Origin: Escherichia coli | GTDB taxonomy: Bacteria; Pseudomonadota; Gammaproteobacteria; Enterobacterales; Enterobacteriaceae | Reading direction: 5' to 3' (one strand) | DNA length: 64,000 nt | NCBI RefSeq assembly: GCF_001677475.2 | Contig: NZ_CP015229.1 | In this document: positions 1,870 through 57,684 of the stretch, piece after piece | How the letters are laid out: each line of letters opens with the position of its first letter | Numbering within the stretch: position 1 is the stretch's first letter | Position numbers and translations under genes: made by a program | The notes under the pieces: generated by a model | What the model was told of the DNA's origin: nothing | The model's input: only the letters and a program-made list of their open reading frames with translations | Databases searched by the model: none

Positions 1870-2217
1870 TTATCTATTTAGAATACACATAATACCATCA
1901 ATAAATCCAAGTGCAGTTTGCAACTCCTTTCTAATAGTTCCATCCGAGCATTTCCGCTTCTTTGCGATTGTACGGAGTGAAATCCCGATAACAAAGTGAG
2001 CAATGATCAGCTCATATTCTTCTGGTTTATATTTCCGCAACCGGGCCACACATCCATCAATCATAATTCCTTCATCATCATCGCACTGGAGACGTGACTT
2101 TTTACCGTGTGGTAGAAGCCCCTTGAAACCAGCCGCTATCGGCTGCCAGTCGACACCACTATTTTCTGCTGCAGCCCAAGCCCCCCAACGATCTAAAGCT
2201 TCGTACATATCACGCAT
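1870..2217 (-). CDS. Phage antitermination protein Q-like
   Basis: 115 aa beginning MRDMYEALDRWGAWAAAENSGVDW...GFKGLLP...SRLQCDDDEGIMIDGCVARL, which resembles the Q family of lambdoid/Qin-type prophages; it is the last gene of the minus-strand early-right operon. Confidence 0.55.
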   Translation of the reverse strand: MRDMYEALDRWGAWAAAENSGVDWQPIAAGFKGLLPHGKKSRLQCDDDEGIMIDGCVARLRKYKPEEYELIIAHFVIGISLRTIAKKRKCSDGTIRKELQTALGFIDGIMCILNR

Positions 2218-5876: not shown

Positions 5877-6379
5877 GGGCGCGCCTCCCATTGATTACGG
5901 CGGAAAGCAGTGTGAGTCAGGCTGGTTTCGGCCTCATGGAATGCTTCAATGCAGCTCTCGTAGTACCGCATTGTGCGCAGACTTAACCCAAGCTGAAGCA
6001 TCATCAGACCATCAAGAGTTATGTAATAACCACGCAAAGAATCGCCATAAAGGTGATAAGTGCCGGGTATGAAATTACGGGTGAAAAACTCGCGCGAGCA
6101 GTTCAGATACTCGATTTTGTCGACGATATTCTGGTGCATGCGCTTGAAGTGGCAGGCAACATGCAGAGAGAAAATAACGGCCTTGCCGTTGACGGTCTCA
6201 ATTTTGAGGAATGGGTGAGTAGTGGTGGTAGTCATGGTGACAGCCCCGGTAGTCAGTTTGTTAGAAAACTCACCACCAAGGCTTTCCACGACCTTATAGG
6301 TGGTGAGACGTACAGGGGTGGAAATACCGGAGACTACCGAACCCGGCCCGACCGAAGTCGGCCCTGTACGCCCCACCAT
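5873..6379 (-). CDS. Hypothetical protein (start uncertain; C-terminal part of a long open frame)
   Basis: Frame is open from 7174 to 5873 but its upstream part overlaps the well-supported FinO-like gene; only the portion downstream of that gene is called. The stop overlaps the next ATG (ATGA); no convincing RBS was found at ATG 6379 or GTG 6472. Confidence 0.3.
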   Translation of the reverse strand: MVGRTGPTSVGPGSVVSGISTPVRLTTYKVVESLGGEFSNKLTTGAVTMTTTTTHPFLKIETVNGKAVIFSLHVACHFKRMHQNIVDKIEYLNCSREFFTRNFIPGTYHLYGDSLRGYYITLDGLMMLQLGLSLRTMRYYESCIEAFHEAETSLTHTAFRRNQWEARP

Positions 6380-6533
6380 AATTTGGGCGTAGCAATGCTC
6401 ATGACACGAAAAAACCGCATGAGCGCGGTTATGCTCAGTAATCAATTTCGGGTTTCCACGCCCGGCATCCACTTTACAAGATGCCTGAATAGTGTAACGT
6501 CCCGAAATTAAGGAATCAATGTTTTGATAAAAT

Positions 6534-7170: not shown

Positions 7171-7389
7171 TCATTCCACACCTACCCCTTCACGCTGATT
7201 CCAGTCATGAACAGCACGTTCTTTCGAATCAGGAATCTGGTTTGCGTTACAGCAAGTACATGCGACGTAATAACCATCATCGCCATCCAGAAAATATTTC
7301 ACCTCAATGAGTTGTACTTCCGGATTTCCGCAGAATGGGCAAGGTTTCAGCTCGACATCACCAGTTACACACGTCTTGATTTGCATCAT
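7171..7389 (-). CDS. Lar-family restriction alleviation protein (anti-restriction)
   Basis: ELKPCPFCG...GYYVACTCCNA...AVHDWNQR matches the Lar/restriction-alleviation zinc-ribbon signature (KPCPFCG ... C-x-x-C ... WN-R). Confidence 0.65.
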   Translation of the reverse strand: MMQIKTCVTGDVELKPCPFCGNPEVQLIEVKYFLDGDDGYYVACTCCNANQIPDSKERAVHDWNQREGVGVE

Positions 7390-8240
7390 TTGTTCTCCTG
7401 TAAAAGATTCGCAAGCTCAGTGTTATGGGTAAACAGCCCATCCCATGTTTTCTTCATCGGTAGTTCGCCGTTCAGATAATGGCGATATAACCAGGCAGCA
7501 CCTTTGGGCTTTAGTAACGGTTTAAAGGTGTCTCGCATTTCCCCATTTTCCTGCTCAACCCGGTTGTAGCGCTCCGTCAGATACTGATCACGTGCATACG
7601 CTTTTACACGCCAGCGTGGATACATAGCCTCCGGACGGTCGTCATACAGCCAGTTACGCTCTTCAAGGAACGCATTAATCTGACGAGTGTTTACACCGTT
7701 GAGTTGTTTGCAGAACTGCACAGGAGTGATGCCATCGGCGAGATGACTTTCGAGTTTGCTGATGTAGCGAGCCTGACGCTCTGCATACCCGAGAGCAAGG
7801 CGCTCGGATTTTTTGGCTTCAATCCACGCTTCAGCAGCAGCGATCGGATCGTCAAAGTCTGGAATAGTGTTTGAAGAAGGCGTTGCTTTACGAAAATACG
7901 CCTGCTCCATTTTTTCGAAGAACGACCAGGCCTCGTCTGTATCGACGATTTTTGACATGCGGGCAGCGCCGCGTTCTGTCCAGAGGACAAGTGATGTTGT
8001 ATGTTTATTAACCGACTCGCTAAAAGATAGTCGGAAAGATTTCAGCTCATCACTGCTGATTTTGAAAAAGTGTTTACCCTCAACGAAACGATCTTCATTT
8101 CGAATGTAGTTCTGTTGTATACGGATTGGCGTTGTTCCATATCCCGCCGCCAACGTTTCGGTGGTAACTACACGTACTCCCTGCCACTCAATAACTGGCA
8201 AGTTTTCAGGGTTGACTAATTTTTGTTTATTGATCATCAT
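7386..8240 (-). CDS. Phage antirepressor-like protein (ORF6N/KilA-N-type N-terminal domain)
   Basis: N-terminal IEWQGVRVVTTETLAAGYG...IRNEDRFVEGKHFFKI is characteristic of the ORF6N antirepressor domain; located immediately downstream of the Cro-like gene. Confidence 0.6.
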   Translation of the reverse strand: MMINKQKLVNPENLPVIEWQGVRVVTTETLAAGYGTTPIRIQQNYIRNEDRFVEGKHFFKISSDELKSFRLSFSESVNKHTTSLVLWTERGAARMSKIVDTDEAWSFFEKMEQAYFRKATPSSNTIPDFDDPIAAAEAWIEAKKSERLALGYAERQARYISKLESHLADGITPVQFCKQLNGVNTRQINAFLEERNWLYDDRPEAMYPRWRVKAYARDQYLTERYNRVEQENGEMRDTFKPLLKPKGAAWLYRHYLNGELPMKKTWDGLFTHNTELANLLQENK

Positions 8241-13707: not shown

Positions 13708-13917
13708 GTGGGGCTGGATTGCGTACCTATATCAACCTACTGCCGCAACGCAGGAGAAACGGTTGATGCCGTTAACAAACGGATACAAAGAGGAATATGG
13801 AAAGAAGGGGTACATGTATTAAAAGTCGACGGAGTTAAAGAACGTTGGGTCGACTTAATGGAGATTACAAAATGGGCAAGAAAGAACAAGGATCATTATC
13901 TCTCCCCAGAGGAGTAA
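13708..13917 (+). CDS. Excisionase-like protein (putative Xis)
   Basis: 69-aa ORF with GTG start and GAGGTG RBS, immediately upstream of and overlapping the integrase gene; small winged-helix-like protein typical of Xis. Confidence 0.45.
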   Translation: MGLDCVPISTYCRNAGETVDAVNKRIQRGIWKEGVHVLKVDGVKERWVDLMEITKWARKNKDHYLSPEE

Positions 13918-15044
13918 CTATTCGCCAGCATAAAACTGGCAGCACCATGGTTATCACTTTTACATATAAAGGGGTTCTGTGTCGGGAGCCCCTCTCCAGA
14001 ATGGAAGTAAATGCGCGCGGTGTGAAGTACGCCGAGCGTCTGCTGGGAGAAATAAAAAATCAGATTATCGATGGTACCTTCGAATATGCAAAATACTTCC
14101 CCAACTCCCAAAAACTGGAGCTGTTCGGGGGAGTGAAAAAAAACAAAAATATAAAATCTTACCTGGATGAATACCTGATTATCTGCCAGAACCGTAACCT
14201 GTCACCATCGACAATTAAAGGTTATGAAAAATGCCTGTCGGCGCTGTCAGCACTGCACAAATTTCATGTATCAGAACTGACGCCAGCAGTACTCAAAAAC
14301 TGGATCGCCAGCAGAAAAACAAAACTGAAAACGATCCGCAATAATCTTTCATTTCTGCGCAGCGCCATAGATGAAGCGGTAACAGATGGTTTGTTAACAA
14401 TAAATCCTGTCACGCTAGTCAGCGCCAGCCGATATCACGTATTAGACAACACACCAGGCAGTGATGATTACGAGGTCGATCCTTTTACGCCAGCGGAGAC
14501 AGCAGCAATCTATGACGCCTGTCATTACCCGGAATGGCGAAATCTGTTTCGCTTCGCCTTTAATACCGGGCTGCGCAGCTCAGAATTGTGCGCGCTGCGC
14601 TGGACAGATATAGACTTCATCGACAACACAGCGCATGTCCAGACTGCAAGCGTAGTCGGGGTAATCAAAAGCACCAAAACAAAAGCCGGCACTCGCAAAG
14701 TACAACTGAACAGCGAAGCGCTGGCGGCTCTTCAGGCACAAAAGCCCTACACAGCGCTAAAAAGCGACTTTATATTCAGCGATCCGAAAACTCGCGCCCC
14801 TTGGGCAAACGCGGACGCGATTCGAAAAAAAGCCTGGCTACCAACCCTTAAAAAGGCTGGAGTACGCTATCGCAATCCGTACCAGACACGCCACACGTTC
14901 GCCACTAGGCACATTAGCCAGGGCGTTAATCTGTTCTGGCTTGCTGGTCAGATGGGGCATAAAGGACCGGAAATGCTGTTCAGACATTACGGTTCTTACC
15001 TTGCAGAATACGATGGAAAAACGGCGATTTCTGCAACCCCGTGA
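13872..15044 (+). CDS. Phage tyrosine integrase (IntR/IntS-like)
   Basis: C-terminal catalytic region with RHTFATRHISQGVNLFWLAGQMGHKGPEMLFRHYGSYL (R/H/Y motif region); N-terminal arm-binding-like domain; GGAG RBS before ATG 13872. Confidence 0.8.
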   Translation: MGKKEQGSLSLPRGVTIRQHKTGSTMVITFTYKGVLCREPLSRMEVNARGVKYAERLLGEIKNQIIDGTFEYAKYFPNSQKLELFGGVKKNKNIKSYLDEYLIICQNRNLSPSTIKGYEKCLSALSALHKFHVSELTPAVLKNWIASRKTKLKTIRNNLSFLRSAIDEAVTDGLLTINPVTLVSASRYHVLDNTPGSDDYEVDPFTPAETAAIYDACHYPEWRNLFRFAFNTGLRSSELCALRWTDIDFIDNTAHVQTASVVGVIKSTKTKAGTRKVQLNSEALAALQAQKPYTALKSDFIFSDPKTRAPWANADAIRKKAWLPTLKKAGVRYRNPYQTRHTFATRHISQGVNLFWLAGQMGHKGPEMLFRHYGSYLAEYDGKTAISATP

Positions 15045-15313
15045 CGGCAAAATATTTCAAAATGTTGTACATAATCAGGACGTTACAGGGACAACAATAT
15101 GTACGTAAAATGCACATAATTCCTTGTTTGAAAAAATAAATCGTTCATATTCAATAAATTGGATTAATCACGATCACGGGTTCAACTCCCGCCAGCCAAT
15201 CATGATTGGACGGTGTAAGGACAACACCAACAAAAACAGGAAGTTAGAAGTCTCAGCAGGACACCGACCAGACGGTGAGGAGACATAAAAGGATACGCAA
15301 AGGAGCCGCGGCT

Positions 15314-15340
15314 CCTGGTGACATGAAAGCCCACAGATGT
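15314..15340 (+). terminator. Rho-independent terminator-like hairpin in the int-ypjA intergenic region
   Basis: AGCCCACAGATGTGGGCT followed by TTTTT. Confidence 0.4.
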
Positions 15341-15358
15341 GGGCTTTTTCGTTGATGG

Positions 15359-56917: not shown

Positions 56918-56994
56918 TGGTGCATCCGGGAGGATTCGAACCTCCGACCGCTCGGTTCGTAGCCGAGTACTCTATCCAGCTGAGCTACGGATGC
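56918..56994 (-). tRNA. argQ: tRNA-Arg (anticodon ACG)
   Basis: Reverse complement is GCATCCGTAGCTCAGCTGGATAGAGTACTCGGCTACGAACCGAGCGGTCGGAGGTTCGAATCCTCCCGGATGCACCA; name assigned by position in the array. Confidence 0.85.
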
Positions 56995-57096
56995 ATCGGG
57001 AAAACTTATTTTACTGCTGATATTGATACCGCTACTAAAGCCATATCAAATAAGAAAATCCATCTTAACCATCATCACTGATGATTACGGAGAATA

Positions 57097-57173
57097 TGGT
57101 GCATCCGGGAGGATTCGAACCTCCGACCGCTCGGTTCGTAGCCGAGTACTCTATCCAGCTGAGCTACGGATGC
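57097..57173 (-). tRNA. argZ: tRNA-Arg (anticodon ACG)
   Basis: Identical 77-nt tRNA-Arg sequence; second copy. Confidence 0.85.
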
Positions 57174-57235
57174 ATCGGGAAATTTATTTTACTGCTGATA
57201 TTGATACCGCTACTAAAGCCATATCAAGTAAGAGA

Positions 57236-57312
57236 TGGTGCATCCGGGAGGATTCGAACCTCCGACCGCTCGGTTCGTAGCCGAGTACTCTATCCAGCTG
57301 AGCTACGGATGC
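57236..57312 (-). tRNA. argY: tRNA-Arg (anticodon ACG)
   Basis: Identical 77-nt tRNA-Arg sequence; third copy. Confidence 0.85.
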
Positions 57313-57376
57313 ATCGGGAAACTTACTTTACTGCAGATTTTTTGATACCGCTACTAAAGCCGTATCAAGTAAGAGA

Positions 57377-57395
57377 TGGTGCATCCGGGAGGATT
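57377..57395 (-). other. Truncated tRNA-Arg fragment (3'-terminal ~19 nt only)
   Basis: TGGTGCATCCGGGAGGATT matches the 3' end of the tRNA-Arg copies, then diverges into unrelated sequence. Confidence 0.4.
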
Positions 57396-57511
57396 ACTCG
57401 CCTTGCGGCTCGCCCTTCGGGCCGTTGCTAAAGCAACGTTATCCTTCCTGGTGCTTGCGGCTAGTACCGCCACCTCTTCCACATCTTCATCGCTGAAGAT
57501 TACGGATAATA

Positions 57512-57588
57512 TGGTGCATCCGGGAGGATTCGAACCTCCGACCGCTCGGTTCGTAGCCGAGTACTCTATCCAGCTGAGCTACGGATGC
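57512..57588 (-). tRNA. argV: tRNA-Arg (anticodon ACG)
   Basis: Identical 77-nt tRNA-Arg sequence; fourth copy, 3 nt from serV. Confidence 0.85.
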
Positions 57589-57591
57589 AAA

Positions 57592-57684
57592 TGGCGGTGA
57601 GGCGGGGATTCGAACCCCGGATGCAGCTTTTGACCGCATACTCCCTTAGCAGGGGAGCGCCTTCAGCCTCTCGGCCACCTCACC
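57592..57684 (-). tRNA. serV: tRNA-Ser (anticodon GCU)
   Basis: Reverse complement is GGTGAGGTGGCCGAGAGGCTGAAGGCGCTCCCCTGCTAAGGGAGTATGCGGTCAAAAGCTGCATCCGGGGTTCGAATCCCCGCCTCACCGCCA, with a long variable arm. Confidence 0.85.

Follow-up and report, generated by a model that had tools for sequence, protein, structure and literature searches.

Features of the locus

The window (the whole 64-kb stretch of DNA that was analysed) has the gene order of the ssrA-ypjA-ileY-...-argQZYV-serV region of E. coli K-12. Its features, including those around the integrase-proximal end of a prophage, are as follows.

1870-2217, minus strand: Q antiterminator gene, with three ORFs (50-1839) just beyond it
13708..13917, plus strand: small ORF overlapping the integrase start, with no Pfam match
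13845..15044, plus strand: tyrosine integrase, longest ORF (Pfam; annotated as integrase in all related genomes)
15045..15176, plus strand: attachment-site P arm (phage), filling the gap from the integrase stop codon to the block identical to ssrA
15066, 15100 and 15111 (15066..15119), plus strand: three direct copies of TGYACRTAA, candidate arm-type integrase-binding sites
15177..15198, plus strand: displaced ssrA 3' end (from alignments to unoccupied sites and to attL, and from a partial Rfam tmRNA match)
15177-15180, plus strand: T-stem CGGG
15181-15187, plus strand: T-loop TTCAACT
15188-15191, plus strand: T-stem 3' strand CCCG
15192-15196, plus strand: acceptor strand CCAGC, then CA at 15197-15198
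15196..15197, plus strand: site of a 5-bp deletion, TCCAC (equivalently CTCCA) being absent relative to intact ssrA
15199..15358, plus strand: original host ssrA trailer (B' side), from comparison with unoccupied sites
15326-15349, plus strand: intrinsic ssrA terminator, a hairpin at 15326-15347 and then TTTTT
15359..20056, minus strand: ypjA/ehaD-like autotransporter gene, a 1565-aa ORF (ypjA annotated in related genomes)
22961-23036, minus strand: tRNA with a CAT anticodon (tRNA-Met by ARAGORN; tRNA-Ile as annotated in related genomes)
56918-57684: cluster of four Arg tRNAs and a Ser tRNA (ARAGORN)

Relatives of the integrase annotate its start at about 13872. Pfam searches detected the domains Arm-DNA-bind_2 (9e-19), Phage_int_SAM_5 (3e-5) and Phage_integrase (6e-20); with arm-binding, SAM-like and catalytic domains, the protein is, by its domain content, a lambda-type heterobivalent recombinase. 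The gene is transcribed toward the junction, and its stop codon at 15044 is located 132 bp upstream of the ssrA block. The counterpart of the small ORF at its start is annotated as 'excisionase' in strain MFDS1022581 and as 'hypothetical protein' in other relatives, which hints weakly at a possible excisionase.

The P arm was found linked to this integrase in eight E. coli genomes, whatever adjoins it on the right. When the P arm and core block were aligned across relatives including the free phage LMessi (PP925823, 37 kb), the mean column identity was 90%, higher than the 79% DNA identity between the integrase regions of LMessi and the window; LMessi is thus a relative of the window prophage and not the same phage. 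Three of the four TGYACRTAA matches in the window fall within the 54 bp listed above, the pattern having been chosen after the copies were seen, and a paired ATGCAC motif is kept in the LMessi P arm and present again in its P' arm. We infer that the TGYACRTAA repeats are candidate arm-type integrase-binding sites. A promoter-like site at 15082-15111 was at chance level and was set aside.

On the host side, the stop codon of ypjA, the first host gene past the junction, is at 15359. At unoccupied sites, the sequence directly 3' of ssrA is ~96% identical to the interval 15199..15358; the EDL933 junction matches this interval at 100% identity. A terminator hairpin had been predicted at 15314-15340; it is real, with coordinates a few bases off, since folding of the region resolved two hairpins, at 15301-15316 and 15326-15347, with a joint stability of -28.2 kcal/mol (z = -4.7). 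The terminator scanner gave no call for the plus-strand hairpin at 15326-15347, and weak matches to isrB, rsmX and mir-138 in a permissive Rfam scan were discounted as nothing but the terminator hairpin read from the minus strand. From its position in the aligned host sequence, the terminator belongs to the host ssrA trailer and is not a phage att element. A perfect 16-bp palindrome, AGGAGCCGCGGCTCCT, lies at 15301-15316 just upstream of the ssrA terminator hairpin and is kept in most of the trailers compared; it may, for instance, have a part in processing or act as a further terminator element.

The original prediction had also pointed to a palindrome following the tRNA-like motif. This palindrome, CCAATCATGATTGG, is present at 15196-15209, where it shares 3 nt with the motif instead of following it. 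The number of perfect 14-bp palindromes in the window (5 observed vs 4.3 expected from shuffles) was not beyond chance, and a functional role for CCAATCATGATTGG was rejected. Furthermore, neither the phage nor the CP4-57 replacement arm contains it, and it lies mostly in 15199-15358; on this comparison it is host trailer sequence and not a phage att element.

Elsewhere in the window, we take the tRNA at 22961-23036 to be ileY, with a CAT anticodon modified by lysidine. In the prophage early region, a C4 antisense RNA and isrK (81.9 and 53.4 bits, respectively) were detected side by side at 6296-6484 on the minus strand, inside a long ORF that encodes Ash and Rha domains. An antirepressor gene of the ORF6N/KilAC type is close by (7386-8240), and by its content this region looks like a P1/P7-style antisense-controlled antirepressor module. 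The three ORFs at 50-1839 (244, 130 and 240 aa, plus strand) have no Pfam match, and similarity to the two closest related prophages begins only at about 2175-2213. At the same position, the prophage of OkiPb01695 carries a type I restriction-modification system, IS elements and stx2g. The three ORFs may be uncharacterised cargo (a moron) or a defence cassette.

Origin of the motif downstream of the integrase

A tRNA-like motif, resembling a T-stem-loop plus the 3' strand of an acceptor stem, had been predicted downstream of the integrase. It is present on the plus strand as the 24-mer CACGGGTTCAACTCCCGCCAGCCA at 15175-15198, in a single copy within the 64-kb window; no further match with up to 3 mismatches was found in the window, and none in 100 shuffles. 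ARAGORN detected neither a tRNA nor a tmRNA gene at 15045-15313 and no tmRNA gene anywhere in the window, and Rfam at the gathering threshold likewise gave zero matches at 15045-15313 and no tmRNA gene in the window, in agreement with the prediction that the motif is not part of an intact tRNA. A permissive Rfam scan returned a partial tmRNA match (model positions 348-362 of 374; 9 bits, E=0.16) at 15177-15191, which coincides exactly with the T-arm. The RNA-gene scans therefore yielded this tmRNA match and no tRNA match by ARAGORN or Rfam at the motif, and the best match overall was to the tmRNA model and to ssrA. The T-arm and palindrome together folded with a stability like that of shuffled sequence (z = -0.55).

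Positions 15177-15196 are identical to the ssrA 3' end at 20/20 positions and 15197-15198 are its terminal CA, with 5 bp absent between them. From these alignments, the motif is the T-arm and 3' acceptor strand of the tmRNA gene ssrA and not a tRNA remnant. The predicted anatomy was thus correct and the predicted tRNA source was not, the unoccupied-site alignments and Rfam both pointing to ssrA as the target. The motif had further been described as not followed by CCA, with no proper acceptor end, because TCCAC is absent; the CA at 15197-15198 is what the 5-bp deletion has left of the terminal CCA of ssrA.

We then used BLAST to compare 15140-15360 with 5,426 complete E. coli genomes, in which ~1,800 records cover at least 80% of the query. 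In the sampled records with an unoccupied site, the match begins at 15177, under the annotated ssrA gene, and extends to ypjA. Unoccupied E. coli sites read ...GCGGGTTCAACTCCCGCCAGCTCCACCA|ATCATGATTGG... and then directly ypjA. In strain 219, for example, smpB, ssrA (363 nt) and ypjA follow one another with nothing between; this strain reads ...GGACGCGGGTTCAACTCCCGCCAGCTCCACCA|ATCATGATTGGACGGTGTAAGG..., and the window reads ...CGATCACGGGTTCAACTCCCGCCAGC-----CAATCATGATTGGACGGTGTAAGG.... The window is therefore similar to the unoccupied sites from 15177 through to ypjA, save for the TCCAC gap, and the proposed comparison with an empty site bore out the prediction in strain 219 and many other genomes, which join ssrA directly to ATCATGATTGG... 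and then to ypjA.

Other E. coli genomes also contain the integrase together with the 132 bp on its 3' side, and the matches in genomes H10-H20 end at 15196. In H10 (strain 2015C-4136CT1), the only one of these inspected, the sequence past 15196 consists of TCCACCA, a CP4-57-like arm and a degraded integrase; judged from this arrangement, the strain carries a tandem array at ssrA. The closest complete E. coli genome in the collection is about 95-96% identical to the window. The second ssrA block would lie beyond the window start, and the direct repeat was seen in OkiPb01695, a relative ~96% identical over the integrase region. Its related prophage (about 60 kb, with stx2g) lies between an intact ssrA and a ypjA-side junction. 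The intact 363-nt ssrA (L006:11334-11696) is at the far prophage end, carries the same block and is followed by phage tail genes; it is completed by CTTTTGATAGGACTGC..., the phage P' arm, which has its own hairpin terminator (-19.4 kcal/mol). The ypjA-side junction has the same structure as in the window, including the 5-bp deletion, and is 98.6% identical over 15140-15360.

Moreover, the free phage LMessi contains the P arm, the 27-bp block CGGGTTCAACTCCCGCCAGCTCCACCA and the P' arm contiguously (L007:2690-3020), and its P' arm is the same as the attL P' arm of OkiPb01695. Positions 15177-15198 of the window correspond to 22 of the 27 bp common to attP and attB. The unoccupied sites, the intact ssrA of OkiPb01695 and the contiguous attP of LMessi agree with the prediction of an att core that is a duplicated 3' fragment of the target gene. 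We propose, with a probability of about 93%, that 15045-15358 is the integrase-proximal junction (attR, P-O-B') of a lambda-like prophage in the ssrA 3' end. The insertion site is thereby identified as ssrA and the right prophage boundary is placed, with phage sequence up to about 15176-15196 and host sequence from about 15197.

Alternatively, the motif might have nothing to do with integration and derive from a tRNA, either as a decayed gene or as what is left of a phage-encoded one. The T-arm-like hairpin CGGG/TTCAACT/CCCG would suit this, as would the fact that no intact tRNA was found. Nevertheless, the full 20/20 match to the ssrA 3' end plus CA, the Rfam match to tmRNA positions 348-362, the ordinary fold of the fragment (z = -0.55 vs shuffles) and a similarity to unoccupied loci that spans the whole trailer all speak for ssrA; the unoccupied-site comparison refutes the decayed tRNA, to which we give next to no weight. 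We also considered that the ssrA fragment is the leftover junction of an earlier and different occupant, OI-108-like or P4-like, and that the att site of this integrase is elsewhere. Tandem arrays at ssrA do exist, as in 2015C-4136CT1, and the scar with its surrounding 171 bp (15190-15360) is 100% identical to the EDL933 OI-108 junction. However, the EDL933 element has no more than CGCCAGC in common with ssrA, against a complete T-arm in the window; in eight genomes whose right-hand neighbours differ, the block from 15177 invariably accompanies this integrase and P arm; and the LMessi attP holds the block contiguously. Such a leftover junction is very unlikely, and at most the scar, not the junction, may have been inherited from an earlier occupant.

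The five-base scar in ssrA

Alignment of the window (CGCCAGCCA) with intact ssrA (CGCCAGCTCCACCA) revealed an exact 5-bp loss (Δ5) between CCAGC and CA. The scar equals the published entry CGCCAGC-----CA (PMC10107115, Table 1). In that table, compiled largely from Williams 2003, Onodera et al. (2022) list CGCCAGC-----CA for EDL933 OI-108, E. coli RS218 and Salmonella LT2, and a 1-bp scar for K-12 CP4-57 (PMC10107115). Such mutations abolish trans-translation when put into tmRNA, and the association of ssrA scars with integrases has been published mainly for P4-type and other integrases (PMC10107115). In our own alignments, the EDL933 junction carries Δ5 and the K-12 junction carries Δ1.

With a 40-nt probe across the scar, 831/3,667 matching E. 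coli records were found at 95% identity or more, the scar lying beside the native trailer. Δ5 is present on at least four B' haplotypes and adjoins at least three different elements. A single origin was rejected, because the trailer haplotypes that carry Δ5 show between 0 and 19 differences over 165 positions. Among the junctions of the phage family (n=8), five are intact, two have Δ5 (the window and OkiPb01695) and one has Δ4. From this distribution, the Δ5 scar is recurrent and not a property of the phage family of the window, because several haplotypes and elements carry it and most junctions of the family are intact. The Δ4 junction was observed in strain A36 (NZ_CP028739.1, L014:~1679-1705), a member of the same phage family whose 4-bp deletion, CCAGCCCAATC, resembles the Yersinia-type scar (PMC10107115, Table 1).

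To find Δ5 in an unoccupied ssrA, we used a probe in which the ssrA body is joined to the scarred end and required a full-length ungapped match. Only one of the 5,426 complete genomes, that of strain WB61 (NZ_CP020025.1, L008:2656-3014), had this allele. The state of WB61 matches the expected product of precise excision from a scarred junction, and the strain is presumably a natural tmRNA-defective one left by excision.

The gap may also have been made in place, after integration, by the phage's own integrase, a possibility that concerns only the origin of the scar. Williams reportedly blamed such ssrA damage on integrase action in 2003. The Δ5, Δ4 and Δ1 scars all start directly after CCAGC in many lineages including Salmonella, which suggests a mechanistic hot spot, and the Δ4 variant occurs with the same phage family. 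On the other hand, 5/8 junctions of the family are intact, published reports link such scars mainly to P4-type and other integrases, and the trailer of the window equals that of EDL933, where a different element has the same scar. We consider this origin rather unlikely, and the scar is probably older than this prophage copy or of an origin unrelated to phage type. The phage could have lysogenised a scarred host and thereby repaired ssrA; an inner or earlier occupant could have been lost on resolution of a tandem array like that of 2015C-4136CT1; or the damage could have occurred in place after integration.

Integration model and known ssrA occupants

In the integration that we propose for this prophage, attP would hold a 27-bp copy of the ssrA 3' end (CGGGTTCAACTCCCGCCAGCTCCACCA), with the P arm beside int and the P' arm opposite, and the P' arm would provide a substitute ssrA trailer and terminator. 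Recombination of attP with ssrA by the heterobivalent tyrosine integrase would rebuild an intact ssrA at the far prophage end, outside the window, and the displaced host copy would stay at the int side, followed by the host trailer, terminator and ypjA. Upstream of the window, the far end would thus be expected to consist of smpB, a 363-nt ssrA ending in ...CCAGCTCCACCA, the P' arm CTTTTGATAGGAC... and tail-fibre genes. While the prophage is integrated, read-through transcripts from int would stop at the host ssrA terminator.

We infer that strand exchange most likely takes place in or near the T-loop, left of the scar, because the identity block begins at the 5' strand of the T-stem and the dyad CGGG/TTCAACT/CCCG suits core-type binding. 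The deletion begins 9 bp to the right of the T-loop, and a core site of lambda size would therefore stay intact. If the exchange is left of the scar, then the phage would have supplied the intact ssrA 3' end in this strain. A defective ssrA, as in WB61, would be the probable outcome of precise excision; after excision left of the scar, attB would read ...CCCGCCAGCCAATCATG (Δ5), a tmRNA-defective allele. At slightly less than even odds, the only intact ssrA 3' end of this strain may be the phage-supplied one, such that precise excision or curing of this lambdoid prophage, itself perhaps still inducible, would yield ssrA Δ5 and shift the cell from trans-translation to ArfA-dependent rescue, or else lysogeny may have repaired a scarred ssrA. 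If the phage entered a scarred ssrA, lysogeny itself would be the restorer of tmRNA function. To our knowledge, a switch of this kind from trans-translation to ArfA-dependent rescue has been demonstrated experimentally only for CP4-57, which is cryptic and P4-type, and tmRNA loss on excision is already documented for other ssrA occupants.

The ssrA gene is a well-documented hot spot for prophages, Stx phages included. According to the Islander paper, a tRNA or tmRNA gene that has been split by an integrating island is made whole again by the island, and the displaced fragment ends up at the island's other end (PMC4383910). As in the known elements at the ssrA site, a tyrosine integrase in the window targets the ssrA 3' end, the gene would be restored at one end with the displaced fragment at the other, and the element would bring its own ssrA terminator. 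We found no essential difference from these elements; the window represents another prophage lineage at the site. Insertion into a tRNA or tmRNA gene is textbook behaviour for integrative elements, and the junction, with its published scar, stays within known biology throughout.

The individual systems differ in detail. The EDL933 OI-108 junction shares with the window the CGCCAGC-----CA scar and a host trailer 100% identical over 15190-15360, but it belongs to another element with other integrases, which are transcribed away from the junction, and has 7 bp (CGCCAGC) in common with ssrA in place of the whole T-arm found in the window. At the K-12 CP4-57 attR (ssrA ΔT357), a scarred and displaced ssrA 3' end likewise lies upstream of ypjA, and excision of CP4-57 was shown experimentally to move the scar into ssrA and to inactivate tmRNA (PMC10107115). 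In contrast to the window, CP4-57 is a cryptic and not a lambdoid prophage, has a P4-type integrase at the ssrA-proximal end, and shows a 1-bp instead of a 5-bp deletion and a short identity block. The int-proximal junction of lambda also has an arm-binding integrase, encoded beside attP and transcribed toward it, and an AT-rich flanking arm with repeated short motifs. Lambda, however, targets the gal-bio intergenic region with a 15-bp block, whereas the window involves the tmRNA gene and a 27-bp block, and the candidate arm-site motifs of the window are unlike those of lambda. The LMessi attP shares a homologous integrase, the P-arm blocks and the ssrA block with the window and differs in that its similarity to ssrA reaches 8 bp further left with one mismatch.

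Two minor observations concern repeats between the phage arms and the host trailer. The trailer at 15199-15290 is significantly similar to the phage P' arm of OkiPb01695 (L006:11697-11780) and of LMessi (L007:2860-2940). Local alignments scored 20-22, a level that none of 500 shuffles reached (shuffle mean 9.3, z = 6.5-8.4), and the same alignments detected no similarity of the trailer to the CP4-57-like arm. Either the host trailer gave rise to the P' arm, or an ancient phage of the same family left the trailer behind as a relic. In addition, a 19-nt direct repeat with 79% identity between its copies is located in the P arm (GGACGTTACAGGGACAACA, 15078-15096) and in the host trailer (GGACGGTGTAAGGACAACA, 15208-15226), and it may be a site for an accessory protein or a by-product of the homology between the trailer and the P' arm.
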